Below are positions 1-64,000 of a stretch of 64,000 nt of DNA, piece by piece. Source of the stretch: Candidatus Binataceae bacterium (GTDB lineage Bacteria > Desulfobacterota > Binatia > Binatales > Binataceae); NCBI GenBank assembly GCA_041491005.1, contig JBGPUE010000010.1, positions 178 to 64,177 of the forward strand. The letters run 5' to 3'. Both the position numbers and the translations under genes were made by a program. The number at the start of each line of letters is the position of its first letter. The first letter of the stretch is position 1. The notes beneath the pieces are model-generated. The model was not told the origin of the DNA. It worked only from the letters and a program-made list of their open reading frames with translations, and did not search any database.

Positions 1-196
1 CCCCAGGGGGAAGCACGATGTCTACATTCAGGTAAGTGTAATAGACCGCCACTGAGTGATTCGCAGCAGCAATGTGCGTGATTATGAGTCACGTGTGCTC
101 CAAGCGACTCCATCGTAGCAATGGACACCCTTGGCATATCAGCTTTGCCGACTCGGCATCAGTTGCTGTATGATTCACGCCGCCTAGGGGGAACAA

Positions 197-2293: not shown

Positions 2294-2408
2294 CCTGCGC
2301 ACGGGAAGCACGGGGTGCTCCTGCGCAAAAGATTCGTGATGCCAGTGGGCTGCGCCGAGAATTTGGAGCCGGGTCCAGCGGCCTCGAGAGAGGAGTCGAC
2401 GCTTCAAG

Positions 2409-6629: not shown

Positions 6630-6764
6630 AGCGCGACCGGACCTGGCAAAGAACATTCTCCGCTCGCATTCTGCCACACTCGGCGCCGATGCTTAGTTGA
6701 ATGCTCGACGTCATACGATGACCCTCGCAAGCAATCGCTTGTCACACTTCTCAAAGGATAGAGA

Positions 6765-7499: not shown

Positions 7500-8577
7500 G
7501 GGTACTGTCGGTGTTGGTGTGAATTGGAGTACATCCGCCAAGAATCGTGGCGCGGCGAGTTTCGCAAACATGCGCTGTTCGGCTTGAGCGCCCCCGGCCC
7601 TTCGGGCTGGTAGTAGAATGCCCACGATAGTCGCCCCAGTGCTGATGAGGTCGAGCGCCAGCCGCGCGCGACCACCTTGAGCAAAGCCAGATCTGGCCCC
7701 GGCGACGTGGGCGCCTGATTCCCGTTCAGGATGATGCGACTCACTCCGCCTCCGCAAGCGATTTCGAACGGAACTTCGAGTGGCGTGAGCTCCAACTGCT
7801 CAGGCGTTTTGGAATGAACTTCCATCGCTGAGTCATTCGTGCGACAAGGGTCGATGCTGATCCGAAGTCGCCCCTTCGCAACCACGACCTTCGGACAACA
7901 AGACGCAGTATCCGGTGGCGCTCGGACTCGTCGACAGACTTGAACCGCGCCATAGCGGCTCTCGCGCGCTCATCTTTGGACAAGGTCTTGAGCGTGGAGT
8001 CGATGACCAGCTGTTCCAGCTCGTGAGCTGCGACACGTGGCAGGCTACCGGCTTCTTCGGGCCGATGCTGAACGACTGCCTGACTTACATAGTAGCGATA
8101 GCGGCGGCCTCCCTTACTCGTATGCGGACCGATTCAGTTGTTCTTCTTAGCGCGCGCTCCCGCCTGATGCCCGTTTGCGCCACCTCGCTTCGTGATCCGC
8201 ATTGCAGCCGTTTGGACATCACCAGAACCCACAACGCAAGTAGTTCTTTCTTGCCAAGTCCGCTGACCAGATCTGTCGGCATTTTCGGCAACGAAGCCGA
8301 TCGCCGCCGATCAAGTCGACGCCGACGCCTCTGAGGACAAACTCCGCACCCGCGCCGGAAAGCTTTGGAGTATCCGGACACATCGGCGCCTCCGATTCGC
8401 ACGATGCTTCACCGCCCTGCCACCACGACCTTCATCGTTATAAGACTTTAGAGATAATCTTAATAATTCATGAGACGTCATAGTGGGTCAAGACCATCGA
8501 GTCTCCCCGGTCGCCGCCAGAGCAACTAGCGCCCTGCCGGTCACCACATGGCGACGAGGTACGTCTCGTTCCCTCGA

Positions 8578-11500
8578 TCATCCGAGGGTGATGCGTACTC
8601 GATGGGTCACGCCGTCGTTAGCCAGGGGGATAACGGGTCGGTTTCTCGACAGAGCTTCGCCGTCGAGCTCGATGGAGGCAATTCCGCGACTCACTCCGCG
8701 CGGGTTCTCCACCGCGATCTCATAGCGCGCAGAATGGTATAGGAAGACGATTTCGAAGCGTGGCCAAGCCTTCGGCACACACGGATCGATGACCAGGGTT
8801 GCGCCCCGCAAACGAAATCCGAGTATCCGCTCAAGGCCCACCCGATACATCCACGCGGCCGAGCCAGTGTACCAAGTCCATCCACCGCGTCCGACATGGG
8901 GAGGCGTAGCGTAGATGTCGGCACAAGCGACGTACGGTTCCACCTTGTAGCGATGAATGCCGGCGCGCGTGCTGGCGTGATTGATGGGATTCAGCATCGA
9001 GAATAGCTCGCCGGCTTTGTCTCCCTCGCCCAGCATGGCGAATGCAAGCACCGACCAAATTGCGGCATGTGTGTACTGGCCACCGTTTTCCCGGATTCCA
9101 GGTGGGTATCCTTTAACGTATCCAGGGTCGAGCGGTGCCAGATCGAACGGAGGGGTGAAGAGTAGGACCAGTTTTTCGTTCCGGCGGACGAGATATTTCT
9201 CCACCGCCGCCATCGCGGTTGCAGCGCGAGCCGGATCGGCGGCACCGGAGATCACTCCCCACGATTGCGCGATCGAATCAATTCGACATTCGGTACTCGA
9301 AGCCGAACCGAGCGGTGAGTCGTCGTCGAAGTAGCCCCGCCGGTACCAGTCGCCATCCCAGCCGTCTCGCTCAAGGGATTGCTTGAGAGCGGCCGCGTGT
9401 CGGCTCCAGTTTGCAGCGCGCGCATTCTCTCCGCGGTCATCGGCCAGGTGAGCGAAGTCGGAAAGCGTGGAATAAAGGAACCAGCCAAGCCAGATGCTCT
9501 CGCCTTTTCCCTTCTCACCGACCCGGTTCATGCCGTCGTTCCAATCGCCGGTGCCGATCAGTGGCAGGCCGTGGTGACCCACCGCGAGACTCACGTCAAG
9601 GGCCCGGGCGCAGTGCTCGAAGAGCGTGACGCGTTGCTCGGAAACCATCGGTCGAAAGTACGATTCGTGCTCGTCGGCACGGAGGGTTGGGCCTTCGACA
9701 AAGGGGACCATCTCGTCGAGGACTGCGAGGTCGCCTGTGACCTCCACATAATGGGCTGCCGCATACGGCAACCATACCCGGTCGTCGGAGATCCGGGTGC
9801 GAACCCCCTGGCCAGATGGCGGGAGCCACCAATGCTGAACGTCGCCCTCGGCGAACTGCCGCGCGGCCGCACGCAACAGATGCTCCCGCGTCACTTCAGG
9901 CGTCGATGCAGCGAGCGCCATCACATCCTGAAGCTGGTCGCGAAAGCCGTAGGCGCCGCTCGCTTGGTAAAACGCCGACCGAGCCCACACGCGGCATGCC
10001 AGTGTCTGGTAGAGCAGCCAGCGGTTCATCAGAATGTCCATCGCTCGGTCGGGTGTCTTCACTTGAACTGCGCCGAGGATCTCGTCCCATTGCCGAGTGA
10101 CCGCCCTGAAGACCGAATCCAGGTCTGTGGTTCGGTAGCGCGTGATCAAGGAAAGCGCCTCCGCCTTCGTCGCCGCCTCGCCGAGAAAGAAGACAATTTC
10201 GGCCGCACTGTTCGGCGCAAGCTGAAGCTGAGTCTGCAGGACGCCGCAGGGATCGAGACCGGCGCCGACCCGATCGGAGAGCGGCGTTGCGCTGGCGAGC
10301 GCGGCCGGAGAATCGAGCGTGCCGTTGCGGCCAACGAACTCCGTGCGGTCGCCGGTCCAAGCGCTTTGGCGTCCGGCGAGGTCGGCGAACGCCACGCGAC
10401 TACCGAAATCGTTACTCCGAGGGTTCCGCGCAAGCATCGCTCCGGTCGTCGAATCGATTTCCGTGACGACGAACGGCGCAGAAGTGATGCGGGAAGCGCC
10501 GAGCACCCACTCCACGTATGCGGTGACCGAAAGACGCCGCGATCGCGCCGAGAGATTCCGAATCTTCAACCGGGAAATCTTGATCGGATCCTCGGGGGAT
10601 ACATATTGCAGAAGTTCGAGCGAGATCCCGTGCGAAGTGTGCTCGAAGCGGCTGTAACCTTGGCCATGCCGAACGACGTACGGCGAGGTCTCCTCGCGAA
10701 TCGGCAGAGCGGTGGGACTCCAGAACGCACCTGTCGCTTCGTCACGAACATAGATCACCTCGCCCGGAGGGTCGGAGACGGGGTCGTTGGACCAAGGAGT
10801 GATCTGGTTCTCGCGGCTGCTGATCGACCATGTGTAGCCAGAGCCGGCGGCCGACACTTGGAAGCCAAACGAGCGATTCGCGATCACATTCACCCATGGC
10901 GCCGGTGTCCATAGCGCCTCGCTGAAGATTGTCACGTATTCTCGCCCGCCGGCGGCGAAGCCGCCGATGCCATTGAAAAACTCCAGGCTCGTTTGGGGCG
11001 GCGTAGCCTTCGGCTGTTCGTTCGCCGGCGCAGACTCGCGTCTCGGGGGCGGCGCGATGGCGGGTTGAGATTCCTCCAGGCGATTGACCTGCTCGGTGAG
11101 GCTTCCGTGGTGGCTGAGAAGCACCGCCCGGGCGGTGCTCTGAAGCAGGCTTCGCACCTCGACCGAGATCAGATCGGAGCGCAACACAAACACTGCTCCC
11201 CGCGCCGCTTCTCCGTCGGCCTGCGGCCGCGATTGGTTCGCACGGACCAGCGCTTCCAACGTGGCCTGCAGATCCTGATCGTAGGACGAAGGCTTTTCAT
11301 TCAGAATCACGAGATCGACGTCGAGCTGCTTCATCCGCCAGTATTCGTGGGCGCGGACCAATTGCCGAACGATCTCTCGATCCTCTGCTTCATCGATCCG
11401 GACCAACACGATCGGCAGGTCCCCGGAGATTCCGTGGGCCCATAGCGTCGAAGATCCGCGCTCGCTCCGCTTGAGCACCTCGGACGAAGGCCGCATCGTC

Positions 11501-14500
11501 GGGTTGGCATAGATGACGTGATTGGCGATGCGCTGGAAGAGGTGCGCTTCGTCGGGACTGACGCCGAGATGGTGCAGCTCCACCTGAGCCTGCGTCCAGG
11601 CCAGAGTGACCGCGCGCTCGAAGGCTGTAAAGTCGTGGTGCTTGTCTGCCAAGTCAAGCGCTTCGACTCGGGAGGGTGCGATCAGGGTCCAGAATGCGAC
11701 GCGCGCCCGGCCACCCGGCGGAATTCTTAAACGGTGGCGAAGGCTGAAGATCGGATCGAGCACGGTGCCGACCGTGTTGGAAAGCGGCCGGCCGTCGATC
11801 ACGGATATCGGCGTTCGGATCCCTCGCGCACGCCCAAGGAACGCCGCCCGGTCGGTCTCGAATTGCAAGTCGCCCACCGTCTCGCCTTCTACTACGGCAA
11901 GGTGGGCTGCCCAGACCGGCGCCTCGCCGGGCGACCGCAGCCGCCGCGTTGCCATCACAGCGCCCACGTCGGCGACGAATTCCGTCTGCACGAACAGCTT
12001 GGAGAAGGCGGGGTGCGCGGCGTCTTCCGCTGGGGGCGCCAAGACGACCTCAGCATAGGAGGTCACCTCGATTTCCCGATACCGGTTTCCAAGGTTTGAG
12101 ATCGATACGCGGCGAACCTCGGCGTCGTCCTCGGGCGAAACCGCGATCTCGAGTGTTGTCGTGAGCGTCCCGTCGCGCCTCGTGATTTCGGCTCGATCCT
12201 CGGAGAACACCACCCCGTAACTATCCGGCTCGACGCCGGTCGGTTGATATCCCGCCGACCATACTTCGCCGGTACGCACATCGCGCAGAAAAACGTACGT
12301 TCCCCAGGAGTCGCAGGTAACGTCTTCTCGCCAACGCGTGACCGCGAGGTCCCGCCAACGGCTGTATCCGGAACCCGCTGCAGTGATCATCACTGCGTAT
12401 CTGCCGTTCGAGAGAAGGTGCGTGCGCGGAATCACGTCGTGTGGCGATCGGAATCGTCGCAGCATCGGCGCAACGATCTCGCGGATGTTGGGGGCCACCT
12501 TCACTTCCTCGGCACGCGGACGCGCAACCAAAACGTCGCGCGGAGTTCGTTCTTGCAGCAAGAGTTCCGTCGCCTGCATGACTGGCGCGGCGTGAAAACG
12601 GGCGCGCATCGTTCCGTTCCGGAGAGCGTCGTCAATCGCGACCAGAGTCATCCCCTGGTGATGCGCCATAAAAGCTCGAACGACCGCCACGTCTTCGCCC
12701 TCAGGGAGGCGCGTCGGCGTGTAGTCAAGAGCCTCATAGTAGCCATAGCGGCCGAGGCCACCGGCCGCAGCGAGACGTGTGAAGTTTCGCGCCGCAGCTT
12801 TGGCATCTACCATCGCGGCGAGGGCCGTTGCGTAAGGGGCGACGACGACGTTCTCGCTGAGTCCGCGCTTGAGCCCCAGTCCAGGGACGCCAAAATTTGA
12901 GTACTGATAGGTGAGCTCCAGATCTCGCGCGCTGTAAGCCGATTCCGAGACACCCCACGGCACGCCGAGCTCGGCGCCATACTTCATTTGCCGGCGGACG
13001 ACGAGGCGATTCGACTGCGCGAGCAGGCTCCCCTCCGGTGCGCGCATCACCAACGACGGCATCAGGTACTCGAACATCGAACCCGACCACGAGATCAGGG
13101 CCGAACCGCGATCTACCGGCGTCAGGTCGCGCCCGAGCCGGAACCAATGGCGCGCCGGCACGTCTCCCTTGGCGATCGCCACGAAGCTGGCCAAGCGTGC
13201 CTCAGAGGCGAGCAAGTCATAGCAGTTTGGATCGAGGCTGCCTTCCGCGACCCGGTACCCAATCGCAAGAAGTTGCCGCGCTGGGTCGAAGAGGAAGCCG
13301 AACTCCATGGCCTCGAACATTTTCCCCGCCATTTCGCCGAGCGCCGCGAGGCGACGTTCGAGCACGCGTGCGGCGTTCGCGGAACGTTCGAAGGCGTCAA
13401 TCAGAGCGTCGGCTCGCACCACCGCGGCAGATACTCCACGGGCGTGCGGGTCAAGTTCCGATCGGTAACGCGTCAGGCCTCTGATCGCCTCTTCGCAGTG
13501 ACCCGGCAGATCGGCAATGGTCGGAACGGATTCGAACAGATAGCCGAGCACCTCCTCCAGCGGAGCGTCTCCATCTACCGCTCTCTCAGCGGCGACGAAC
13601 GCGACGTCGCCCGCGAGCTTCGCCCATGGCATCAACTGTTCGACGTCGCGCTGATGACTCAGGATCGACGCCCGCACCGCTTCTACCCAGTTCAGCACTT
13701 GGGCGCTAGCGTCGTCTCCCCGTTCCTGGTTGAGCGTCCACGCAATGTCGACGGCCGTGTGGGCGTCAAGCGCGAGCCCCGCAAGGCGCCTTCCAACATC
13801 CGCCGGAGTCGTGGCAGGACTTCGCAGCGAAGCGGTGAGAGCGTCGAGTGCGTCCTCGATATGCTTTCGAGTTACCGTTTGAGTCCGCCGATCGTCAGCG
13901 AGCAAACGCAGACACTCGCGGGCGATTTCCAGCGCGTCATCGATCCCGGCGAGCCATCCCGGCCTCGGCACTGGACCGCCGATCATCTCCCGCAAAGCGT
14001 TCTCAAGGGCGATCAGGTGTCCCGCCAGATTCCCGCTATCCACAGACGAGACATATTTGGGGTCTAGCGGACGAAGCTTCCGCGTGTCGTACCAGTTGTA
14101 GAAGTGGCCGTGGAAGCGTTCGAGTCCGCTCATCGTCGTGAGAGTCGCGTCCAACCGCTCCAATGTTTCGAGCACACCCAGCCAGCCGAAATCGTGCGCG
14201 GCGGTCACGGACAGAAGATACAATCCGAGGTTGGTGGGCGACGTCCGATGAGCCAGCATTGGGATTGGTTCTTCCTGGAAGTTGTCAGGCGGAAGCATGT
14301 GATCCTCCGCGGTGACGAAGGTCTCGAAGAAGCTCCAGGTGCGGCGGGCGATGAGCTTGAGTGTCTGCGCATCTGTCTCGGAGGGCGGATTTGGGCCCAC
14401 CATGGGCGGTGGAAGGCTCGCCCATCGCGCGACCGCCGGCGATAGCATCCACAGGATCACGAATGGAGCCGCGATCGGCCATGACCCACCCCCCAAGCAT

Positions 14501-28145: not shown

Positions 28146-30722
28146 GTGCCCACCGAAATCGCAGAAGCCCAACCGGATCCCGTGTCGATCGAGGCGTTAT
28201 TCGAGCGCTGTCAAGTCACCGAGGCGGGCCTCTCGAGCGAAGAGGCTTCCCGCCGCCTCGTGCGATACGGCCCGAACGAACCAGTTCCGCTCCGCCGTGG
28301 TACCGCGATCACTCAGTTCATCCGGTTTTGCAGCAATCCGCTGGTCCTGATTCTCCTATCGGCGTGTGCTATTTCGGCCCTGGTCGGCCAGAGAATCGAT
28401 GCCGCGATCATTGCCGCGATGGTGGCAATCAGCATCGCGCTGAATTTCGTCCAGGCGTACCGGTCAGAACGCGCAGTGCTCCGCCTCCGTGAGCAGGTCG
28501 CACCGAGCGCAACCGCTCTGCGCAACGGACGGTACGTTGAGGTGCCCCGCCGCGCGATCGTGCCGGGAGATATCGTGCGGCTTGCCGCCGGCGATCTGGT
28601 ACCCGCTGACGCGCAGCTCATTCAGAGCCGCGATCTTCACCTTCAGCAGGCGGCGCTGACCGGAGAATCGATGCCGGTCGAAAAGTTCGCCATCGGGAGT
28701 GAACCCGTGGCAGACAAGTCGGCGAGCCTGATCTTTCTTGGCAGTTCGGTCGTTAGCGGCAGTGGCACAGCAGTAGTCATCGCCACGGGATCGGCCACGG
28801 CCTTCGGCGGCATCGCGGCCCGGCTGGCGGTCCGGCCGCCTGAGACCGAGTTCGATCGCGGCACGCGACAGTTCGGTTTCCTGATCATGAGGACGGTCTC
28901 TTTCCTCATCCTGTTCATCCTGCTGGTCAACCTGAGCGCGCATCGCAACGCACTCGAATCACTCCTTTTCGCAGTCGCTCTGGCAGTCGGGCTGACCCCT
29001 GAGTTCCTGCCGATGATCACGACGGTGACGCTCTCGATGGGCGCGGTGAGGATGGCGCGCAAGAAGGTGATCGTAAAGCACCTCATCGCGATCGAAGACT
29101 TCGGCAGTATCGATGTGCTGTGCAGCGACAAGACTGGCACGCTTACTACCGGCACGATGTCACTCGATCGTTCGCTCGACCCCTTCGGTCAGCCGTCGGA
29201 TCGTGCTCTATCGCTCGCCTATCTCAATAGCCGCTTCGAAACGGGCATCAAGAGTCCGCTTGATGCCGCGATATTGGCGAATCCGCGCGACGATGCAGAG
29301 CCTTACCAGAAGCTCGACGAAATCCCGTTTGACTTCGAGCGTCGCCGTCTTTCGATCCTGGCCGGAAGGAACGGCGCCCGTCTCCTTGTTACCAAGGGAG
29401 CGCCTGAGAGCGTCATCGGTGTCAGTGCATATTTCGAAGCTGGCGGAACTACGCATCCGCTGGAGGAAGAGCCACGACGCCGATGCGAAAAGACTTTCCG
29501 GGAGCTCAGCGCGCAGGGCTTTCGCGTGCTCGCGGTGGCGTGTCGCCAGATCGAGGGCCGTGATCGACTGGCGACGGACGATGAGCACGATCTCATCCTC
29601 ACCGGATTCCTAACCTTCTTCGATCCTCCAGTCGGAGATGCGTCAGAATCGCTTGCGGCGCTGCGACGGGACGGAGTGCAGGTAAAGATTCTGACCGGTG
29701 ACAATGAGCTGGTCACAAGGCATGTCTGCGAGCAGGTCGGGATAAAGGCTGAGCGGATCGTGCTCGGAGACGAGGTCCAGGGCATGAGCGACTCGGCATT
29801 GGGTCACGTCGCCGAACAGGTGGACGTCTTCGCGCGTGTGTCGCCGGCTCAGAAAAATCGGATCATTCAGGCTCTCAGGCAGCGCAGCCACGTGGTCGGC
29901 TTCCTGGGTGACGGCATCAATGACGCGCCCTCTCTGCACACCGCCGATGTCGGGATCTCAGTGGCCGGAGCTGTCGATGTAGCCAAGGATGCTGCCGATA
30001 TCATTTTGCTGGAGCACAATCTTCAGGTGCTCCACAGCGGCATCATCGAGGGCCGCAAGGCCTTCGGCAATGTTCTGAAGTATTTGCTGATGGGGACCAG
30101 TTCGAATTTCGGCAACATGTTCAGCATGGCGGCTGCGTCGGTCTTTTTACCATTCCTTCCGATGCTGCCGACCCAGATCCTGCTGAACAATTTCCTCTAT
30201 GATCTTGCCCAGGTGACGATTCCCACCGACAATGTCGACCCGCTGTACATCCGCAAGCCTCAACGCTGGGACATCACGATAATCCGCAACTTTATGCTGG
30301 TGATTGGTCCGATCAGTTCTATCTACGACTTCCTGACCTTCTACGTCCTGTTGAAGGTCTTTCACTCTTCCGAGCAGCTGTTTCACACCGGTTGGTTCGT
30401 CGAGTCGCTCGCGACGCAGACTCTGGTGCTTTTCGTGATCCGAACGGCGGGCGTCCCCTGGAGCAGTCTGCCCAGCCGGCCGCTGGCGGCGACGACCGTG
30501 TTGGTCGTCGTGATCGGCGTGTTGCTGCCGTTCTCTCCGCTCGCGCAGGCTTTGGGGTTTGTGCCCCTCCCCGGCCGCTACTTTGTCTTCCTGACAGTAG
30601 CGACGCTGACCTACCTGTGTCTGGTCGAAGTCGCGAAGCGCTGGCTCATGGGGCGGCTGCTGGCCAAGCCGGACCGGCGCGTCGGCCATCGTGTGCGCCG
30701 ACACTCTGGAGCCGTCGCATGA
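28146..30722 (+). CDS. mgtA: Magnesium-translocating P-type ATPase
   Basis: DKTGTLT phosphorylation motif, TGD, GDGINDAP, 858 aa with the MgtA-type N-terminus (LSSEEASRRLVRYGPNE). GTG start with SD GGGAGA. Confidence 0.9.
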   Translation: MPTEIAEAQPDPVSIEALFERCQVTEAGLSSEEASRRLVRYGPNEPVPLRRGTAITQFIRFCSNPLVLILLSACAISALVGQRIDAAIIAAMVAISIALNFVQAYRSERAVLRLREQVAPSATALRNGRYVEVPRRAIVPGDIVRLAAGDLVPADAQLIQSRDLHLQQAALTGESMPVEKFAIGSEPVADKSASLIFLGSSVVSGSGTAVVIATGSATAFGGIAARLAVRPPETEFDRGTRQFGFLIMRTVSFLILFILLVNLSAHRNALESLLFAVALAVGLTPEFLPMITTVTLSMGAVRMARKKVIVKHLIAIEDFGSIDVLCSDKTGTLTTGTMSLDRSLDPFGQPSDRALSLAYLNSRFETGIKSPLDAAILANPRDDAEPYQKLDEIPFDFERRRLSILAGRNGARLLVTKGAPESVIGVSAYFEAGGTTHPLEEEPRRRCEKTFRELSAQGFRVLAVACRQIEGRDRLATDDEHDLILTGFLTFFDPPVGDASESLAALRRDGVQVKILTGDNELVTRHVCEQVGIKAERIVLGDEVQGMSDSALGHVAEQVDVFARVSPAQKNRIIQALRQRSHVVGFLGDGINDAPSLHTADVGISVAGAVDVAKDAADIILLEHNLQVLHSGIIEGRKAFGNVLKYLLMGTSSNFGNMFSMAAASVFLPFLPMLPTQILLNNFLYDLAQVTIPTDNVDPLYIRKPQRWDITIIRNFMLVIGPISSIYDFLTFYVLLKVFHSSEQLFHTGWFVESLATQTLVLFVIRTAGVPWSSLPSRPLAATTVLVVVIGVLLPFSPLAQALGFVPLPGRYFVFLTVATLTYLCLVEVAKRWLMGRLLAKPDRRVGHRVRRHSGAVA

Positions 30723-54594: not shown

Positions 54595-55734
54595 ATGCCG
54601 CTGGTCCTCACCGAAGAACAGGCCATGCTTCGCGACAGCGCGCGGGGCTTCTTGCGCAAGAATGCGCCGATCGCACATCTGCGCCAGCTCCGCGACAGCC
54701 GTGACCCGGCGGGTTTCTCGCGTCCGCTTTGGAAGGACTTCGCGCAACAAGGCTGGGCGGGCATCCTCGTCCCCGAGGCGTTAGGCGGTCTGGGCTTGGG
54801 CTATGTCGAAGCCGGTATCGTGATGGAGGAATTGGGACGGACGCTGACGCCCTCTCCTTTTCTGGCGACGGCGGTGCTCACCGCCACCGCTATCGCGCGC
54901 GCCGGTAGCAATGCCCAAAAGAATGAGTATCTCGCGCGCATCGCCGGGGGCGATTTGATCGCGAGCTTGGCGGTCGATGAGACCACCAAACACCGACCCG
55001 AGAAAACCGCGTTGACCGCGACTCGATCGGGAAACGGTTTCGTTCTCAATGGCGCCAAGACTTTCGTGCTGCATGGTCATGTGGCCGACATTCTGCTCGT
55101 GGTCGCCCGAACCGCCGGCACGCCGGGCGAAACTCGAGGTCTCACGCTCTTCGCGGTGGATGCGAAGACGAAGGGACTCCATCCTGAGCGCACATTGATG
55201 GTCGACAGCCACGACGCTGCGCGGGTGGCCTTCGACAAGGTGGAGGTCGGCCGCGATGCCGTTTTGTGCGAGGTCGACGCAGGCTGGGGCGTGCTCGAAG
55301 GCGTGCTGAACGCCGGACGGGCCGCAGTCGCTGCGGAACTCGTGGGAGCGAGCGAGGAAGCCTTCAGTCGGACCGTCAGCTACCTCAAGGAACGCAAGCA
55401 ATTCGGCCGGCCGATCGGCGAGTTCCAAGCCCTCCAGCATCGTGCCGCCAACATCTATATCGAACTGGAACTCACGCGCTCGGCTGTGCTGAAAGCCCTG
55501 CAGACGCTCGACGAGTCTTTCGACAGCGCTGGCACGATTTGCTCCGCAGCAAAGGCGAGGGCTGGCATCAGCGCTACGCTCGCTGTGCAGGAGGCCGTCC
55601 AGATGCACGGCGGAATCGGTATGACCGACGAATTCGACGTCGGATTGTTCATGAGACGCGCCCGCGTCGCCCAGGAGTTATTCGGCGACTCGAACTTTCA
55701 CGCGGACCGGCTGGCGCGGCTGAACCACTACTGA
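54595..55734 (+). CDS. Acyl-CoA dehydrogenase
   Basis: MPLVLTEEQAMLRDSARGFL..., VLNGAKTFVLHGHVAD, C-terminal QMHGGIGMTDEFDVGLFMRRA. Confidence 0.85.
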   Translation: MPLVLTEEQAMLRDSARGFLRKNAPIAHLRQLRDSRDPAGFSRPLWKDFAQQGWAGILVPEALGGLGLGYVEAGIVMEELGRTLTPSPFLATAVLTATAIARAGSNAQKNEYLARIAGGDLIASLAVDETTKHRPEKTALTATRSGNGFVLNGAKTFVLHGHVADILLVVARTAGTPGETRGLTLFAVDAKTKGLHPERTLMVDSHDAARVAFDKVEVGRDAVLCEVDAGWGVLEGVLNAGRAAVAAELVGASEEAFSRTVSYLKERKQFGRPIGEFQALQHRAANIYIELELTRSAVLKALQTLDESFDSAGTICSAAKARAGISATLAVQEAVQMHGGIGMTDEFDVGLFMRRARVAQELFGDSNFHADRLARLNHY

Positions 55735-55830
55735 TCGCGAAGGCAGCTCAACCCTGCTCCAAGCGGCGAGCGCTTTGAGCGGCACTCAGAGCGCCTAGCC
55801 TCACGGATAACTAGTATCCATGCGCGCCAC

Positions 55831-57162
55831 TCATTCGATTCCATAGCGTCTGCGTTTGCGCCAGAGCGTGGTGGCGTTGATTCCGAGCGTTGCGGCGGCC
55901 TCATCAAGTGTCGCGCTCTCGGCCAGCACTCGCGCGATATGTTCTCGTTCGACGTCTTCGAGACTCGCGGCAGGCGAGGTGGTGCCCGGCGCCTGCGGTA
56001 TATCGCGGAAGATCGAATCGGGCAGATCGTCGGGCCCGATGGTATCGCTGCGGCTTAGCACCGCGGCGCGCTCAAGAGCGTTACGCAACTCGCGCACGTT
56101 TCCCGGCCATTGATAGCGGGCCAGGGCCGCGCCGGCCTGCGGCGCGAGCCGGAGCTGCGGACGGTGGTTGCGAATCGCCGCCGCACGCAGCATCCACTCC
56201 GCCAGCGCCGGGATGTCCTCGCGGCGCTCGCACAGCGGCGGCACGCGGAGCGTAATCACGTTGAGCCGGTAGAACAGATCTTCGCGGAAGCGGCGCGCCT
56301 TGACCTCGTCTTCCAGATCGCGATTGGACGCGGCGATGATTCGCGCGTCGACCCGGATCGTGCGTTCTCCGCCCACGCGTTCGAAGCTCTGTTCCTGGAC
56401 GAAGCGTAGAAATTTGGTCTGCAGTGCGGCCGAGAGGTCGGCGATCTCGTCGAGAAATACCGTGCCGCCGTCGGCCGCCTCCAGGCGGCCGGGCTTGTCC
56501 TTGATGGCGCCGGTGAATGAACCGCGCATATGGCCGAAGAGCTCGCTTTCGAGCAGCTGCTCCGAGAGCGTCGTGCAGTTGACCACGACGAACGGGCGCT
56601 CGCATCGCGGACTCCATCTGTGAATCTGGCGGGCGAGGACGTTCTTGCCGGTGCCGCTCTCGCCGCTGAGCAGGATCGTCGCCTCGCTGCGCGCAGCCTG
56701 CCGCGCGGTTTCCAGCATGCGAACCATTGCGGCGCTGCGCGATTCCAGCATCGGCATCTCGTCGATAGTCTCGCGTAGCACCTGGTTCTCCGCCTGCAGG
56801 CTGTGCATCTGCAGCGCGCGATCGACCACATGGCGTATCTGGTCGAGCGAGAAAGGCTTGGCAATATAGTCGGAGGCGCCGGCCTTCATCGCGGCCACTG
56901 CGTTCTCGACGGTCGCGTAAGCCGTCATCAGGATCACCGGCGTGTAGGGATGCAGCCGCTTCGCCTCGTTGAGCAGCTCGAGTCCGTTCATCTCCGCCAT
57001 CCGGAAGTCGGTCAAAACCAGATCCAGCGGTCCTGCGGCGAGCGTCTGTATCGCCGCGACGCCGCTGGCGGCTTCGCGCACCTCGTGTCCGAGCGACTGG
57101 AAGAACGCCGCGAGGCTGCGGCGAATGTTCTTCTCGTCGTCGACGATGAGCAGTCGCGCCAT
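55831..57162 (-). CDS. Sigma54-dependent (NtrC-family) two-component response regulator
   Basis: Receiver MARLLIVDDEKNIRRSL...DLVLTDFRM; AAA+ sigma54-interaction domain GESGTGKNVLARQIH, GSFTGA (GAFTGA variant), ERVGG; C-terminal Fis-type HTH. The start ATG overlaps the kinase stop (ATGA). Confidence 0.9.
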   Translation of the reverse strand: MARLLIVDDEKNIRRSLAAFFQSLGHEVREAASGVAAIQTLAAGPLDLVLTDFRMAEMNGLELLNEAKRLHPYTPVILMTAYATVENAVAAMKAGASDYIAKPFSLDQIRHVVDRALQMHSLQAENQVLRETIDEMPMLESRSAAMVRMLETARQAARSEATILLSGESGTGKNVLARQIHRWSPRCERPFVVVNCTTLSEQLLESELFGHMRGSFTGAIKDKPGRLEAADGGTVFLDEIADLSAALQTKFLRFVQEQSFERVGGERTIRVDARIIAASNRDLEDEVKARRFREDLFYRLNVITLRVPPLCERREDIPALAEWMLRAAAIRNHRPQLRLAPQAGAALARYQWPGNVRELRNALERAAVLSRSDTIGPDDLPDSIFRDIPQAPGTTSPAASLEDVEREHIARVLAESATLDEAAATLGINATTLWRKRRRYGIE

Positions 57163-58952
57163 CAGGCCTCCGTCATCGCCGGCAATTCGACTACGAAGCG
57201 GCTGCCGCGATCGCCGTTGCTTTCGACGAAGATCCGGCCGCCGTGTGCCTCGACGATGTCCCTTACGATTGCGAGTCCCAGTCCTGCCGAACCGGCTCCA
57301 CCGCCGTTGGCGGCGTATTGAGCGAAGCGCTCGAAGATGTAGTCGCGAATCTCCGGCGCAATCCCGGGCCCCGAGTCCGCGACTTCGAGTATCACCGTAT
57401 GATTGCGCGGCCGCGCAACGATCTCGATTTTTCCGCCGCTGGGCGTATAGCGCAGCGCATTGCCGATCAGATTGGAGACCATCCACGACAGCTTCACAGG
57501 ATCTCCGTTGAGCTGCGGCACAGGCTCGATGCGCCGCTCAAGCACGACTTGCTTCTCGCGCGCCTGCAGGGCGAAGCGTTCGCTCACCTCCTCCGCGAGG
57601 CGGCCGATGTCGAGCGGCCGGCGCTGCACCGCGATCGCGGCTGCTTCGCCGCGGGCGAGGCTCAGCAGGTTGTCGCTAAGCTGCTTCATCCGCGCGCATT
57701 CCTCAAGGATAGCGCCCAACAACGCCCGCTGTCTTGGCTCCAGGCCCTCATGCTCGCGGCCGAGCAGCTCGGCAGAAAGCGCGAGCGAGGTGAGCGGCGT
57801 GCGGAGCTCATGCGAGAGCGTCGCGACCAGGTTCGTGCGTGCGCGATCCTGATCGCGCAGGTAGGTAACATCCTGCATGATGAGCAGCGTACCCAGCGCG
57901 CCGCCCTCGGGATGGCGCAGCGGCACCGGCTTCAGCACGTAAGAGTGTTCGCGGCCGCGCACGTGGAGTTCCACCTCGATGCGCTGGGCGCCGGAAGCGG
58001 ACTTGCGCGACGTCCTGAGCGCGTCCCGGATGCGCAGGTAGTGCGGATGGTTGCTGCTCAGATCATCGAAGATGCTGCCGAGCGCGTCGGCCGCATCGAT
58101 GCCCAGAATGATCGCCGCGATCTCGTTGATGTGTGCGACGACACCTCCCGAGTCAATCAGCACGACGCCGTCCTCGAGGCTCTCGATGATCGCCTCGGTC
58201 TTGCTCTTCTCATAGACCAGCCGCTCGACGTTGAGCTTCTCATACTGTTCCAGCCGCTCGGCCATCTCGTTGAACTCGCGCGCCACGATATCGAGTTCGG
58301 TGAGTCGCTGCGGGCCGAGCCGCAAATGCGTGTCGCGGCGGCTGATTCCGCGCAGCCGCTCGGCAAGTTCCGTCAGCGGCCTCGACAGTGTCCACGACAG
58401 CCCCCACGACAGTGCCACGCCGGTGAAAATGAGCACCAGCAATCCGGCTGCGAACTCGTAGGTCAGGCGCATGCCAAGCCGCATCGCGCGGCTATCGGCA
58501 CGGAACATCGCCGCCCGGTTCATCTGGATCAGATCGTCGAGCAACCCATGAAGCCGGTCATACCCTGCGTCGCGCTCCGCCTGGGGCTGCCCAGCGGCGA
58601 TCTCGCGAAATAACTCGAGAGCATTCGACTCGACGCTGTGTGCCAGCTCCGGCTCACCCACTTCCGTATGGATATGATTCTCGACGTCAATCCAGTGCAT
58701 AAAGGCAGCGCTCGAGGAGGGCAGCGCCGCGCGCCCTTGGCCCGCACGATCGGCAAGTTGCAACCGCCTGAGCTCTGAGTGCATGTGCTGAGCGGCGTCG
58801 ATGCTGACGTAGTTGCGGTACAGTGTCTCGCGAATCGCACCGCCGAGCCGGTACAAGTGCGGCAGGGCGTATCCGCCAAGAATCAAAACCACCGCCAGCA
58901 TCAGCAACGTACCGTTGCGAATCCGGCCGCGGAGCGATGGCGTCTTCATCGC
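57162..58952 (-). CDS. Membrane sensor histidine kinase (two TM helices, periplasmic-type sensor, HAMP, HisKA, HATPase_c)
   Basis: TM1 LLMLAVVLILGGYALP, TM2 LLVLIFTGVALSWGLSWTL, H-box LVATLSHELRTPLTSL, N/G boxes NLIGNALRYTP...DSGPGI...GLGLAIV. The start is set at MKTPSLRG. Confidence 0.85.
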   Translation of the reverse strand, partial: AMKTPSLRGRIRNGTLLMLAVVLILGGYALPHLYRLGGAIRETLYRNYVSIDAAQHMHSELRRLQLADRAGQGRAALPSSSAAFMHWIDVENHIHTEVGEPELAHSVESNALELFREIAAGQPQAERDAGYDRLHGLLDDLIQMNRAAMFRADSRAMRLGMRLTYEFAAGLLVLIFTGVALSWGLSWTLSRPLTELAERLRGISRRDTHLRLGPQRLTELDIVAREFNEMAERLEQYEKLNVERLVYEKSKTEAIIESLEDGVVLIDSGGVVAHINEIAAIILGIDAADALGSIFDDLSSNHPHYLRIRDALRTSRKSASGAQRIEVELHVRGREHSYVLKPVPLRHPEGGALGTLLIMQDVTYLRDQDRARTNLVATLSHELRTPLTSLALSAELLGREHEGLEPRQRALLGAILEECARMKQLSDNLLSLARGEAAAIAVQRRPLDIGRLAEEVSERFALQAREKQVVLERRIEPVPQLNGDPVKLSWMVSNLIGNALRYTPSGGKIEIVARPRNHTVILEVADSGPGIAPEIRDYIFERFAQYAANGGGAGSAGLGLAIVRDIVEAHGGRIFVESNGDRGSRFVVELPAMTEA

Positions 58953-60163
58953 GCGTTCTCCTGCTCGGAGTCGCCCACAATCTCGACGTCGACACCACGC
59001 GCCTGCGCGAGTATGCGCATGGTCACATCGAGGTGAAGCCACCGCCGCCAGATCGGCTGATGAGTACGCCCGAGGATGATTTTCGTGATGCCCTTTTCGC
59101 GGGCAAAGTCAAGCATCGTCCTGACGATGTCATCGCCCTTGAGCCAGACTGATTCCGCGCCCAGATCGCCAGCCAGGTTGATGTTGTCGAGCAGCGCCAC
59201 GAAGTCGCTGGTGCGCACCTTGTGCACCGATTCGGACGGCGTTTCCACGTGGATGGCATACCACTCGGCGTTGAGCCGCCCCGCGATACGCGAGGCCTTG
59301 CGCAACAGCTTGTCACCGTCGGCCGGATTGGAGGAGAGCCCGACCATGATCCGCTCGGTGATTTGGAGCCGGCGGCCGCCTTCGCGCTTGAGCGCTTCCT
59401 GCCCTTCGCGCTGGCGGCTGAGCCCGCGCGCAACCTCACGAAGAGCCATCTCGCGCAACGAGGCAAGATTGCTCGGCTTGAAGAAGTTTCGCAGCGCCTG
59501 CTCGATCTGCGCGGCAGGATAGATCTTGCCTTCTCGCAGCCGCTCACGGAGCGCCTCGACCGTCACGTCGACGTTTACGACCTGATCCGCACGCGCAAGG
59601 AAGGCGTCGGGCACGGTCTCGCGCACCTCGATACCCGTCACCCGTTTCATCAGCGGGTTGAGGCTCTCGACGTGCTGGATGTTCATCGCCGAGATGACGT
59701 TGATGCCTGCGGCAACCAGATCCTCGACGTCCTGGTAGCGCTTTTCGTGTTTGGAGCCGGGTACGTTGGTATGCGCCAGCTCGTCGACGATCGCGACCTC
59801 CGGTTTGCGCGCGAGGATGGCGTCGACATCCATCTCCTGCAACGTCACGCCCCGGTGCGCAATCGTGCGGCGCGGGACGACCTCCAATCCCGCGATTTTC
59901 TCGGCAGTTTCGGCGCGCCCATGAGTCTCGACCACCCCGATTACAGCGTCGACGCCTTTGGCGCGCAGCTGATGCGCCTCTTCGAGCATCTCGTACGTCT
60001 TGCCGACACCCGCTGCAGCGCCGACGTAGATCTTGAGGCGGCCCTTGAACGCCTGCGGAACGAGATCGAGAAACGACTCGGGCTCGGGGCGCACATCGTC
60101 AGGGGGCCGGGCAGAGCCACGGTCCGCTTCACCCTTCGGCGACTGCGTCATTCGCCAAGTCAT
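58946..60163 (-). CDS. kdpD: Stand-alone KdpD N-terminal sensor domain + Usp domain protein (no transmembrane or kinase part)
   Basis: KdpD-N P-loop region LKIYVGAAAGVGKTYEMLEEAHQLRAKGVDAVIGVVETHGRAET followed by a Usp-like domain; 405 aa; ends 6 bp into the next ORF. Confidence 0.8.
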   Translation of the reverse strand: MTWRMTQSPKGEADRGSARPPDDVRPEPESFLDLVPQAFKGRLKIYVGAAAGVGKTYEMLEEAHQLRAKGVDAVIGVVETHGRAETAEKIAGLEVVPRRTIAHRGVTLQEMDVDAILARKPEVAIVDELAHTNVPGSKHEKRYQDVEDLVAAGINVISAMNIQHVESLNPLMKRVTGIEVRETVPDAFLARADQVVNVDVTVEALRERLREGKIYPAAQIEQALRNFFKPSNLASLREMALREVARGLSRQREGQEALKREGGRRLQITERIMVGLSSNPADGDKLLRKASRIAGRLNAEWYAIHVETPSESVHKVRTSDFVALLDNINLAGDLGAESVWLKGDDIVRTMLDFAREKGITKIILGRTHQPIWRRWLHLDVTMRILAQARGVDVEIVGDSEQENAR

Positions 60164-60238
60164 TTGCGCGGCTGCCCTGTCGATCCGGTCTCGGCAGGGA
60201 TCCCTTCCTATTATCCATCTAAGGTCAGCTCGATAGTA

Positions 60239-60844
60239 TCATCTCTCGTTGCGAACTTGCCGAGTGCGGTCCGGGGACAATGCGTCGAGGGCGAGGTTCA
60301 GGCGCAAAACATTCACCCCGGGCTCGCCGAAGATTTCGGCCCATCGCCGACTTGTATTCACCCTGACTAGCCGGCGTACCGCGTCTTCGGCCAAGCCTCT
60401 GGTCTTTGCGACGCGGGCGACCTGGATATCCGCGGCGGCCGGGCTGATCTCGGGATCCAATCCACTACCCGACGCAGTGACCAGATCGATCGGTACCTGT
60501 GCCGGCCGCACGCCCTCGGTTTCGACCACCGCCTTGAGCCGCGTCTGGACGGCGTCGATCAGCGTCTTGCTGGTTGGGCCGAGGTTCGAGCCGCCCGAAC
60601 TCAATCCATCGTAGCCCTTCGCCCCAGCCGTTGAGGGCCGCCCGTGAAAGTTGCGCGCACTTGAGAAGTTCTGTCCGATAAGTGACGACCCGACCAGCTT
60701 GCCGTTCACATATACGAGGCTGCCATTGGCCTGTAGCGGGAAGAGCAACTGGGCCACCGCCCAGACTGCCAGCGGGTAGATGACGCCCGTTAGCAACGTC
60801 ATCACCACGGTAAGCCGGGTTGCGATCCACAGTGAACGCATCAT
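60239..60844 (-). CDS. kdpC: Potassium-transporting ATPase subunit C
   Basis: TRLTVVMTLLTGVIYPLAVWAVAQLLFPLQANGSL (KdpC signature N-terminus). Confidence 0.9.
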   Translation of the reverse strand: MMRSLWIATRLTVVMTLLTGVIYPLAVWAVAQLLFPLQANGSLVYVNGKLVGSSLIGQNFSSARNFHGRPSTAGAKGYDGLSSGGSNLGPTSKTLIDAVQTRLKAVVETEGVRPAQVPIDLVTASGSGLDPEISPAAADIQVARVAKTRGLAEDAVRRLVRVNTSRRWAEIFGEPGVNVLRLNLALDALSPDRTRQVRNER

Positions 60845-60851
60845 CTGTACC

Positions 60852-62894
60852 TCAGGCCAGATGCAGAGCAGTAATCATCAGATCGATCGCCTTGATCCCG
60901 ATGAACGGAACTACCACTCCGCCGAATCCATAAATGAAGAGATTGCGCGTGAAGATCGCGGCAGCGCCCAATGGCCGATACCGCACGCCGCGCAGCGCAA
61001 GCGGGATTAGCGCGATGATAATCAGGGCATTGAAGATGACTGCAGAGAGGATCGCGCTTTGGGGCGTCGCGAGACGCATCACGTTGAGCGCCTGGAGCTC
61101 GGGATAGCCAACCACGAACATGGCCGGGATGATCGCGAAATACTTGGCGACATCGTTGGCGATCGAGAACGTGGTCAATGCGCCACGCGTCATCAGCAAC
61201 TGCTTGCCGATCTCGACCACCTCCATGATCTTGGTCGGATTCGAATCGAGATCGACCATGTTGCCGGCCTCGCGCGCGGCCTGAGTGCCGGCGTTCATTG
61301 CGATACCCACGTCGGCCTGCGCCAGCGCCGGCGCATCGTTGGTGCCGTCGCCGATCATCGCGACCAGCTTGCCTTGCGCCTGTTCCTCGCGGATCAATCT
61401 GAGCTTGGCTTCAGGAGTGGCCTCGGCCAGAAAGCCGCCGACTCCCGACTCGCGAGCGATTGCCGCCGCGGTTAGAGCGTTATCGCCGGTGATCATCACC
61501 GTTCGCATGCCCATCGCATGCAGCCGCTCGAAGCGTTCGCGGATGCCCTCCTTGATGACGTCCTTCAGATGGATGACGCCGAGCGCGCGCGGCCCATCGG
61601 CCACCACCAGCGGCGTGCCACCATCGCGCGCGATTCGCTCGACAGCCGCGGCGAGATCGGCTGGCACGGTACCACCCTGCTCGCGCACGAACGCGATGAC
61701 CTGATCGGCGGCGCCTTTGCGGATGCTGCGGTTTGCGATATTGACGCCGCTCATCCGCGTCTGAGCAGAGAATGGGATGAACTCGACACCGTCCTCGGAC
61801 AGTGGACGGCCGCGGAGATTGAAATCACGCTTGGCGAGCACCATGATCGACCGCCCCTCCGGTGTCTCATCAGCGAGCGAGGCGAACTGTGCGGCCTCTG
61901 CCAGCGCGGCGATCTCGACGCCCTCGACCGGAACGAACTCGTACGCCATCCGATTGCCCAGCGTGATCGTACCGGTCTTATCCAGCAACAGCGTATCGAC
62001 GTCACCCGCCGCCTCGACCGCCCGCCCGGACATCGCGAGCACGTTGTGCTGCACCAGCCGGTCCATGCCGGCAATTCCGATCGCGGACAGCAACCCGCCA
62101 ATGGTGGTCGGAATAAGACAGACCAGCAACGACACCAGCACTGGCAGCGAAAGAGCTACGCTTGCGTACCGTGCGAACGGATAGAGTGAGACAATCACCA
62201 GCATAAAGATGATAGTCAGTCCGGCAAGAAGGATTTCGAGTGCGATTTCGTTGGGTGTCTTCTGACGCCGTGCGCCTTCGACCAGGGCGATCATCCTGTC
62301 CAGGAAGGTTTCACCCGGGTTGGCAGTGATGCGGACCTTAATCCAGTCCGAGATCACGGTCGTGCCGCCGGTGACCGCACTGCGATCGCCGCCGCTCTCA
62401 CGAATCACGGGCGCCGATTCGCCGGTGATCGCGGCCTCGTTGACCGCGGCGACGCCTTCGATCACTTCGCCGTCGCCCGGGATCACCTCGCCTGCCTCGA
62501 CCAGTACTACGTCGCCACGCCTGAGCGAGGTCGCAGAGACCAATGTGGTCGCGCTGGTTTCGGTCACGAGTTTGGCCTGGGTCTCGATGCGGGTCTTGCG
62601 CAGATTGTCGGCCTGCGCCTTGCCGCGGCCCTCGGCCATCGCTTCTGCGAAATTGGCGAACAGCACTGTGAACCAAAGCCATAGCGTGATTTGCAGTTCG
62701 AAGACCGCCAGCGCGTGGCGTCCGGCTGCGAAATCGCGGATCAGGATCATCGCGGTCATGAGGCTGGTGACTTCGACCACGAACATCACCGGATTGCGAA
62801 TCATCAGGCGCGGATCGAGTTTGTACAACGCATCCAGGGCCGCACGCGTAACGATCGCGCGATCCCATACAGCAATCTGCTTTTTCGATGCCAT
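60852..62894 (-). CDS. kdpB: Potassium-transporting P-type ATPase subunit B
   Basis: [31 protein letters not shown]; 680 aa. Confidence 0.95.
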
Positions 62895-62900
62895 GACTTC

Positions 62901-64000
62901 CTAGAAAAGCCTGCCGGTCATCATTGCGAGCTGTTCAACAATCGGGCCGAGCGCGAGTGCCGGAAAGAAGGTCAGCGCGCCCACGATCACGACAACGGAA
63001 ACCAGCAGTACCACGAAGGTCGCACCGTTGGTGGGAAAAGTCCCGGCGCTCGGCGCCGCGATTTTCTTGCCGGCCAGCGAACCCGCGATCGCCAGCGCGG
63101 GAATCGCCATCATGAAGCGGCCGGAGAGCATCGTGATTCCGAGGGTCACGTTGTAGAAGGTCGTGTTGGCGTTGAGCCCCGCGAACGCCGACCCGTTATT
63201 TGCCACTGCCGATGAGAATGCATAGAGAATTTCCGAAAAGCCATGCGGCCCCATATTGGCGCGGCTCGCAAGCCCCGCCTCGGTGACGCTTGCGGCGGCT
63301 GCGGGCAGCAGGATAAGCGCGGGGAAGATCAGCACGTAGAGCATCACCAGCTTCATCTCGCGCGCCTGAATCTTCTTACCCAGGTATTCTGGCGTGCGGC
63401 CCACCATCAGCCCTGCGATGAAGACCGCGAGCACCGCCATCACGAGCATCCCGTACAAGCCCGATCCCACGCCGCCAAAAACCACTTCGCCCAGATGCAG
63501 GTTCACCAGCGCCATCAGCCCGCCCAATGGCGTGAAGCTGTCATGCATCGAGTTAACCGAGCCGTTGGAGGCCGCGGTCGTGGCCGTCTCCCAAATCCCG
63601 GAGCTGACGATGCCGAAGCGGACTTCCTTGCCCTCCATGTTGCCACCGCTTTGACCGCCGGTGGCTGCCTGATTGATTCCCATGCTCGCGAACTGCGGGT
63701 TGCCATGCTGCTCCGACCAGACCGCGGGCACGAGCGTCATCACATAGAGCACGGCCATCGCGGCAAACAACGCCCATCCTTGCCGCATGTCGCCGGCCAT
63801 CTTGCCGAACGTCAAAGTGAGCGCTCCGCCGAGCGCCAGGATTGCCAGCATCTCGATCAGATTTGTCAGCCTGGTCGGATTCTCGTACGGATGCGCCGAG
63901 TTGGCGTTGAAGAAGCCGCCGCCGTTGGTGCCGAGCTGTTTGATTGCGATTTGCGACGCGACGGGGCCCTGCGGGATGGTCTGCGCAGCGCCTTCGAGCG
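62901..64000 (-). CDS. kdpA: Potassium-transporting ATPase subunit A (3' part; the gene continues beyond the window end)
   Basis: C-terminal half of KdpA (…[11 protein letters not shown]…[13 protein letters not shown]…). The reading frame stays open to position 64000. Confidence 0.85.

Follow-up and report, generated by a model that had tools for sequence, protein, structure and literature searches.

The closest described counterpart of the system analyzed here is the kdp operon of Desulfovibrio (Nitratidesulfovibrio) vulgaris Hildenborough (DVU3339.1-DVU3334), which comprises kdpFABC, a gene for a protein composed of the N-terminal domain of KdpD and a Usp domain (KdpD-N/Usp, or KdpD-N for short), a gene for a sensory box (PAS) histidine kinase, DVU3335, and a gene for a sigma-54 regulator, DVU3334 (Rajeev 2011, PMC3333781). 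It has been shown, by DNA-affinity-purified chip (DAP-chip) and motif analysis, that DVU3334 binds its own kdp promoter at the site CGTTACATTTTGTAACG and targets DVU3339.1-3337; the system has been assigned to the low-potassium response, and two further D. vulgaris regulators also target the operon (PMC3333781). Subsequently, DVU3334 has been listed as a GAFTGA regulator for "potassium uptake" (Kazakov 2015, PMC4641369). This D. vulgaris work is all that we found in the literature on sigma-54-dependent kdp. Here we analyze a kdp operon located at the end of a 64,000-nt stretch of DNA (hereafter, the window) from a Candidatus Binataceae bacterium (assembly GCA_041491005.1, contig JBGPUE010000010.1). 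This Binatota operon is a new example of the design already published for D. vulgaris.

Furthermore, it has been demonstrated that the N-domain of KdpD is an atypical serine kinase, active also when isolated, which phosphorylates Ser162 of KdpB and inactivates the pump (Silberberg 2024, PMC11018627). Proteins that consist only of the KdpD and Usp domains are common where KdpE is missing and stay downstream of the pump genes; the split systems cited in the same study are those of Alicyclobacillus, Deinococcus and Anabaena (PMC11018627).

An NtrC-family activator in place of KdpE

Six co-directional genes, all on the minus strand, occupy positions 55831-64000 of the window in the order kdpA, kdpB, kdpC, KdpD-N/Usp, histidine kinase and response regulator (Table 1). 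As in the KdpD/KdpE-kdpFABC system of Escherichia coli, the same pump is encoded and the regulatory genes come after kdpC, but the regulator is an AAA+ sigma-54 activator rather than an OmpR-type winged-helix protein, and the promoter belongs to the -24/-12 rather than the sigma-70 class. The alignment of the window regulator with E. coli KdpE is confined to the receiver (REC) domain (31% identity over 121 aa), and in place of the winged-helix Trans_reg_C domain it carries Sigma54_activat and HTH_8. The recognizable motifs include the receiver Asp52, Walker A GESGTGK (residues 167-173), GSFTGA (214-219, nt 56506-56523), Walker B FLDE and the C-terminal HTH_8, and the GSFTGA motif keeps the Phe and Thr of the GAFTGA-type sigma-54 contact loop. 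The activator-type regulators across all examined loci show GAFTGA 25 times and GSFTGA five times; the latter form is also listed for DVU3220, an NtrC-type regulator of D. vulgaris (PMC4641369). In the Binataceae kdp operon, an NtrC-type sigma-54 activator takes the place of KdpE. The two types of regulator appear to be mutually exclusive: among 80 loci, 29 have an activator-type regulator, 27 a KdpE-like one, and none has both.

All relatives that share 71-76% identity with the window KdpD-N are encoded in metagenome-assembled genomes of Candidatus Binataceae, and the order kdpABC, KdpD-N, kinase, activator is found in each of the 21 Binataceae loci that are sufficiently long. The same gene order is present in locus L164 of Nitratidesulfovibrio sp., whose proteins are homologous to those of the window by end-to-end alignments and the shared sensor domain (46% identity for KdpD-N, 29% end to end for the kinase with E 2e-60, and 43% end to end for the regulator). 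With the D. vulgaris operon itself, the window operon shares the order kdpF-A-B-C, KdpD-N/Usp, PAS kinase, sigma-54 regulator and a self-regulated sigma-54 promoter with an upstream palindrome of 5-nt spacing, the Binataceae version of the latter being predicted from sequence alone. The differences are the phylum (Binatota), GSFTGA against the Desulfovibrio GAFTGA, palindrome half-sites of the form TGC...GCA against GTTAC...GTAAC, two additional open reading frames (ORFs), of 99 and 27 aa, between the promoter and kdpF in the window lineage, and the greater length of the Desulfovibrio kinase and regulator (732 and 502 aa, against 595 and 443 aa in the window). An earlier reading of this DNA, made without database searches (hereafter, the sequence-only reading), had regarded the pairing of kdp with a sigma-54 activator as undescribed. 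Given that DVU3334-3336 together with kdpFABC form the same, homologous arrangement, published along with DNA-binding data, this is not the case.

Outside Binataceae, an activator-type regulator is encoded beside kdp genes in seven loci, from Acidobacteriota (L032), Desulfomonilia (L034), Ignavibacteria (L035 and L047), Bacteroidetes (L048), Bacteriovoracaceae (L071) and Nitratidesulfovibrio (L164). In Victivallis (L040) and Bilophila (L076), such a regulator is found beside KdpD-N, and the sequence examined contains no kdpABC. Strong sigma-54 sites, with 10 or 11 of the 11 scored positions, precede the operons in L034, L035, L040 and L164. The Nitratidesulfovibrio promoter reads TGGCACGCCGCATGCT and is accompanied by two TT[AG]C-N5-G.AA palindromes; the DVU3334 site GTTACATTTTGTAAC, searched with up to 2 mismatches, is absent from that locus, and the palindromes present are related to it.

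The predicted promoter and its conservation in Binataceae

No sigma-54-like site was detected within the window, in agreement with the location of the promoter past its end. The upstream region was read on L163, a 106-kb contig of the Joint Genome Institute (JGI) that was found by exact look-up of KdpD-N and matches the window at 15033 of the 15055 overlapping bases (99.85%; window coordinate = 70164 minus L163 coordinate). An exact KdpC look-up led only to a 5-kb contig ending inside kdpA, and the best identity in a metagenome scan with the KdpA fragment was 73%. What follows past the window end is the 5' end of kdpA, kdpF, the 27-aa and 99-aa ORFs and the promoter.

A -24/-12 element, TGGCGC-GTTCT-TTGCG, is located at positions 4969-4984 of L163, ~1.2 kb past the window end; within it, TGGCGCGTTCTTTGC (4969-4983) is the single match to TGGCRC-N5-TTGC on both strands of 21 kb of this contig (0.18 expected). 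Two TGC-N5-GCA palindromes start at positions 4892 and 4917, that is, 77 and 52 nt upstream of the element. A simple scan of positions 4600-5600 yielded no sigma-70-like promoter, such a scan being insensitive in GC-rich, non-model phyla, and no KdpE-like gene is encoded upstream of the operon on L163. The sequence-only reading had anticipated transcription of kdp from a sigma-54 promoter and a site of the TGGCAC-N5-TTGC type upstream of kdpA; the predicted element, TGGCGC-N5-TTGC, bears this out, as do the relatives described next, and neither an OmpR-type KdpE nor a sigma-70 promoter, which that reading had named as evidence to the contrary, was seen on L163.

In all 18 Binataceae loci with upstream sequence, a GG-N10-GC element occupies a fixed position, against a background of 0.6 such elements per kb per strand. 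The element is located 221-238 nt before the kdpA ATG in 15 loci, usually in the form TGGCATGTCTCGTGC, and 595-626 nt before it in the 3 loci with an extra ORF. The promoter of the main clade, TGGCAT-N5-GTGC, escapes the strict sigma-54 pattern and was recognized by alignment of the upstream regions. A TGC-N5-GCA palindrome is present at -85 to -90 in 18 of the 18 loci, with a second site ~24 nt further downstream (near -64) in nearly all of them and a third one near -40 in many. Apart from the promoter element and the palindromes, the flanking intergenic sequence is divergent in the Binataceae alignment.

Several more genes for sigma-54 activators (AAA+) are encoded within 5 kb upstream of kdp in two Binataceae genomes (L005, positions 1-4710, and L057, positions 2529-3641), which suggests that sigma-54 regulation is widely used in this family. 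The window contains no further activator gene.

The KdpD-N/Usp protein and its predicted target

The window KdpD-N/Usp shares 45% identity with residues 4-350 of E. coli KdpD and has no hydrophobic, potentially transmembrane (TM) segment by hydropathy. Its Walker A motif, GAAAGVGKT (G-X5-GKT), spans residues 48-56 (nt 59996-60022), Walker B, VDELAH, spans residues 126-131 (D127-E128), and the aromatic/Arg pair that holds the adenine is represented by Tyr57, in place of W39, and Arg208, the equivalent of R190 of E. coli KdpD. In its Usp motif, RKASR-X8-WYAIH, the protein follows the E. coli pattern (RXXXR-X8-WXAVY), as distinguished from the c-di-AMP-binding type (both defined in PMC4686210). 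The protein covers positions 4-376 of the 895 positions of the canonical KdpD model PRK10490 (367 bits against a cutoff of 1123); the four TM segments and the GAF, DHp and CA domains are all absent from the polypeptide, which ends at residue 405. In contrast, NF038185 (KdpD-like non-kinase potassium sensor) is matched over its full length (3-373 of 373), with 387 bits against a cutoff of 550, indicating the same architecture outside the curated clade.

The likely substrate is encoded in the same operon. KdpB of the window is 64% identical to E. coli KdpB and contains DKTGT at residues 305-309 and, in the A domain, TGES at residues 157-160 (nt 62415-62426); given that TGES is kept, Ser160 corresponds to Ser162 of E. 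coli, the site of inhibitory phosphorylation. By analogy, KdpD-N/Usp is most likely a stand-alone atypical serine kinase that acts on Ser160 of KdpB in this organism. The two-domain architecture, the Walker motifs and the TGES target are shared with DgKdpD of Deinococcus geothermalis (PMC11018627), but DgKdpD is activated by c-di-AMP, whereas the Usp motif of the window protein is like that of E. coli, and its operon includes a dedicated two-component system for transcription. An Rfam search of positions 55000-64000 detected neither riboswitches nor any other RNA family, so a c-di-AMP riboswitch is not the control element there.

In some relatives, KdpD-N/Usp carries a PTS_EIIA_2 domain at its C-terminus, namely, in Desulfomonilia (L034, positions 9983-11665; E 5e-16) and in Ignavibacteria (L047, positions 9980-11647; E 8e-14), and a related 554-aa protein is encoded at positions 9983-11647 of L032; all three loci carry the sigma-54 regulator. 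The fusion is reminiscent of the connection reported for E. coli among EIIA-Ntr (PtsN), KdpD and sigma-54.

The histidine kinase is not the other half of a split KdpD

The kinase consists of TM1 (residues 13-34), a predicted periplasmic four-helix bundle (35-162), TM2 (163-189), HAMP (185-236), PAS (252-362), HisKA with the H-box SHELRTP at residues 379-385, and HATPase_c. The possibility that it represents the other half of a split KdpD, resulting from gene fission, was considered and rejected because its resemblance to KdpD is limited to the catalytic core: the alignment with E. coli KdpD covers DHp/CA alone (residues 659-883; 33% identity over 233 aa), without the TM/GAF part, and the top NCBIfam matches are PnpS, WalK and PhoR, not KdpD. 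A true split KdpD does exist in Acidobacteriota and Actinomycetota, where, in four loci (L024, L037, L038 and L060), a stand-alone KdpD-N is accompanied by a kinase whose alignment with E. coli KdpD extends from TM1 through CA (residues ~403-880) and by an orthologue of KdpE over its full length (43-47% identity). These systems resemble the window operon in that the kdp genes are accompanied by one for a stand-alone KdpD-N/Usp of ~375-400 aa, but the window has neither a kinase of the KdpD type, with TM/GAF, nor KdpE. On these alignments, the two-component pair of the window is different from, and unrelated to, the split KdpD/KdpE.

The profile searches on the three regulatory proteins thus recover the domains that had been read from the translations, with one addition. 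KdpD-N/Usp is indeed a separate, soluble protein of 405 aa with Pfam KdpD and Usp domains, and the regulator has the AAA+ sigma-54 domain (Sigma54_activat, 7e-67) with both GESGTGK and GSFTGA, so that contact residues of the GAFTGA type, the absence of which would have spoken against a sigma-54 activator, are in place. The two-TM periplasmic-type sensor and HAMP of the kinase were correctly recognized, whereas its PAS domain had been missed. Two statements of the sequence-only reading have to be corrected: the split KdpD gives way to the assignment above, and the ATGA overlap, placed between kinase and regulator, joins the KdpD-N stop to the kinase start, the kinase stop and the regulator start overlapping by one base in TGATG.

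The sensor domain is homologous across phyla, with E values from 1e-9 to ~0.04 in BLAST comparisons with the window sensor. The cross-phylum alignment reveals three motifs, NYxS(I/V), N(I/V)TExGE and LNxxxM, which are specific to kinases encoded beside kdp or KdpD-N genes; in the window kinase, NYVSI is at residues 46-50 and TEVGE at residues 95-99. In an AlphaFold2 model of residues 1-240 (mean predicted local distance difference test score 81.5, above 90 in the periplasmic part), the four-helix bundle is continuous with TM2 and HAMP and, by its helix topology, all three motifs would be located at the membrane-proximal end.

The window sensor matches no PDB sequence and no Pfam family even at E up to 10, including KinB_sensor (PF16767), and a Foldseek search with the model gave weak matches, none with E <= 0.001, topped by NarQ fragments and ligand-binding domains of chemoreceptors; given that these matches are weak and generic, no ligand can be inferred. 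The homologues in L034, L035 and L064 match 4HB_MCP_1 (PF12729) with E 2e-5 to 2e-9, the window sequence itself falling below this model. With NarQ/NarX and chemoreceptor sensors, the kinase shares the module of TM, predicted four-helix bundle, TM and HAMP, but NYxSI, TExGE and LNxxxM are confined to the kdp-linked group. The kinase homologues bear the KEGG label "NtrC family sensor kinase KinB" at JGI and, like KinB/AlgB of Pseudomonas aeruginosa, combine 2 TM segments, a periplasmic helical sensor, HAMP, PAS and DHp/CA with an NtrC-family partner; however, the window sensor does not match KinB_sensor, the Bilophila homologue reaches just E 0.13, and the genomic context and target are different.

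A kinase of the same family, with the four-helix bundle, HAMP and PAS, is also encoded beside kdpABC and a stand-alone KdpD-N in Clostridium sp. UBA701 (L064, positions 7709-10141). Its partner is a 195-aa REC-TPR response regulator without a DNA-binding or AAA+ domain; this different partner indicates that the sensor family is reused with a different output.

Proposed mechanism and alternative explanations

We consider it likely that the locus is a single sigma-54-dependent, self-activating kdp operon in which KdpD-N functions as a stand-alone serine kinase and not as the sensor half of the adjacent kinase. The operon would run, in the order seen on L163, from the palindromic enhancer and the -24/-12 promoter through the 99-aa and 27-aa ORFs, kdpFABC, KdpD-N/Usp and the kinase to the regulator. 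When K+ is scarce, the presumed signal, the membrane kinase would autophosphorylate and pass the phosphate to Asp52 of the regulator, its putative phosphotransfer partner. The phosphorylated regulator would then assemble on the upstream palindromes, contact sigma-54 through the GSFTGA loop and, using ATP, open the promoter, which would yield more pump and more regulator. Once K+ returns, KdpD-N would phosphorylate the serine of KdpB TGES (Ser160) and switch the pump off. The KdpD-N gene would be kept in the operon because the protein is then made together with the pump.

Several observations weigh against this scheme. The Binataceae operon is known as sequence only, and the promoter was seen on the near-identical contig L163, outside the window itself. 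At -22, the -24/-12 element shows G where A is usual. Furthermore, no more than 14 nt separate its end from the initial ATG of the 99-aa ORF, which implies either a very short leader or a misassigned start codon. No rpoN gene was found in the window or in any examined kdp locus, the search being limited to these stretches. In KdpD-N, W39 of E. coli is replaced by Tyr57, and the Usp motif is unlike the c-di-AMP-binding type SXS-X20-FTAXY. Finally, the overlap of the KdpD-N stop with the kinase start fits a physical partnership of the two proteins, without proving it.

Such a partnership is the core of a possible, if rather doubtful, alternative, namely, that a split KdpD is made up of KdpD-N/Usp and the neighboring kinase, which would work as a single sensing complex; KdpD-N would adjust the balance of kinase and phosphatase, and both proteins would be needed for sensing K+ or turgor. 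This could coexist with the serine kinase role. The kinase gene directly follows KdpD-N in the Binataceae, Bacteriovoracaceae, Bilophila, Nitratidesulfovibrio, Ignavibacteria and Bacteroidetes loci. Furthermore, a KdpD-N with an E. coli-type Usp domain lacks the TM and GAF parts that give the E. coli serine kinase its K+ response and so needs some input, which leaves room for an interaction with the kinase. However, what the kinase has in common with KdpD is the generic DHp/CA core, and adjacency is not universal, given that in L032, L034 and L047 the kinase is encoded upstream of kdpA and KdpD-N after kdpC. Moreover, KdpD-N comes after kdpC in all kinds of kdp operon, a position that is explained by its production together with the pump. 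It is also conceivable, but in our judgment unlikely, that the two-component pair controls the operon in response not to K+ but to, for instance, envelope, osmotic or general stress, so that K+ control would be exerted only through KdpD-N on the pump. The generic fold matches of the sensor would be compatible with this, and the two additional regulators that target kdp in D. vulgaris indicate that the operon integrates other stresses (PMC3333781), but the low-potassium assignment by Rajeev et al. (PMC3333781) and the specificity of NYxSI, TExGE and LNxxxM for kinases linked to kdp or KdpD-N across several phyla argue otherwise. That the kinase and regulator are mere neighbors of a kdp operon expressed constitutively or from an unrecognized sigma-70 promoter, as the insensitivity of the promoter scan might allow, appears highly improbable: KdpD-N, the kinase and the regulator are joined by translational coupling, the gene order is shared by 21 species and by several phyla, it is precisely in front of the operon that the -24/-12 element and palindromes are conserved, and in D. 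vulgaris DVU3334 binds the kdp promoter of its own operon (PMC3333781).

Returning to the self-activating sigma-54 operon, we tentatively propose one extension, which may well prove wrong. The kdp-linked kinase could be a so far unrecognized periplasmic sensor of K+ (a cation) with a membrane-proximal pocket in the four-helix bundle, marked by NYxSI, N(I/V)TExGE and LNxxxM. Together with the sigma-54 activator, it would be a main transcriptional controller of kdp in Binatota, Desulfobacterota, Bdellovibrionota, Ignavibacteria/Bacteroidota and Acidobacteriota, and KdpD-N would receive K+ information from the kinase or, in the relatives, from the fused EIIA(Ntr)-like domain. In Lentisphaerota, the set of kinase, activator and KdpD-N is found without kdpABC nearby.

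Layout of the operon and neighboring genes

The coordinates of the operon genes are collected in Table 1. The Pfam match of kdpA starts at profile position 202, so the gene is cut by the window end; the complete gene on L163 occupies positions 5536-7263 (575 aa). The gene lengths are identical in the JGI calls on this contig. The genes downstream of the regulator, which encode acyl-CoA dehydrogenases and amidohydrolases, are convergent, and the regulator is therefore the last gene of the operon.

Table 1. Genes of the Binataceae kdp operon (window coordinates; those on contig L163 are marked)
Feature	Position	Strand	Evidence or remark
NtrC-family sigma-54-dependent response regulator, 443 aa	55831-57162	-	Pfam Response_reg, Sigma54_activat 7e-67, AAA_lid_14, HTH_8
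Membrane sensor histidine kinase, 595 aa	57162-58949	-	Pfam HAMP, PAS, HisKA, HATPase_c; 2 TM by hydropathy
KdpD-N/Usp, 405 aa, soluble	58946-60163	-	Pfam KdpD 1e-94 and Usp 1.5e-5
kdpC, 201 aa	60239-60844	-	Pfam KdpC 2e-72; NF001454 225 bits (cutoff 178)
kdpB, P-type ATPase subunit, 680 aa	60852-62894	-	TIGR01497 1075 bits
kdpA, 3' two-thirds	62901 to beyond 64000	-	Pfam KdpA 1.3e-158, profile 202-548 of 548; TIGR00680 514 bits
kdpF	L163 5422-5514
27-aa hydrophobic ORF	L163 5342-5425		~700 nt past window end
99-aa Cys-motif ORF	L163 4998-5297		between sigma-54 promoter and kdpF

The 75-nt spacer between kdpC and KdpD-N (60164-60238, minus strand) contains an inverted repeat, CCCTGCC...GACAGGG, without a T-run, which could be an element for mRNA processing or attenuation between the pump genes and the regulatory genes.

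An ORF of ~100-130 aa between the promoter and kdpF is kept in L163 and three other Binataceae (L003, positions 4977-5381; L005, 5021-5359; L057, 4966-5358). It has the motifs H.FAI, Y.C.RC.W.F and E.RR.A.F..GPCP, matches no Pfam family and is absent from the JGI gene calls. The 27-aa ORF (consensus MWDLIFILATVAFFxVSLAYVxGCxRL) immediately precedes kdpF, the start of which it overlaps (ATGA). Besides L163, it was noted in L002-L022, L031, L057, L082, L083, L092 and L093; it is present in 21 of the 107 kdp loci examined, including all those of Binataceae, and has no match in Pfam or NCBIfam. Its product could be an additional small subunit of the Kdp complex or a leader peptide.

Elsewhere in the window, a second P-type ATPase is encoded on the plus strand at positions 28566-30020. 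It is 25% identical to KdpB over ~500 aa and is unrelated to the kdp operon.

Implications

What is new here, and in our view modestly interesting, is the breadth of the distribution, the conserved sensor motifs and the defined promoter and enhancer. The analysis provides testable elements, namely, the promoter, the enhancer palindromes and a candidate K+-sensing pocket. If correct, the K+ sensor hypothesis would supply the "unknown mechanism" that remained open in Silberberg et al. for species in which KdpD is short and KdpE is missing.

Not every kdp operon follows the textbook KdpD/KdpE circuit: a second design combines a sigma-54 activator and a four-helix-bundle kinase with a free-standing KdpD-N, probably a serine kinase. 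This design is maintained throughout an uncultured family and turns up again in several phyla. Dedicated transcriptional control can exist even where KdpD is short and KdpE is missing, which refines the view that Kdp is controlled solely post-translationally in such organisms.

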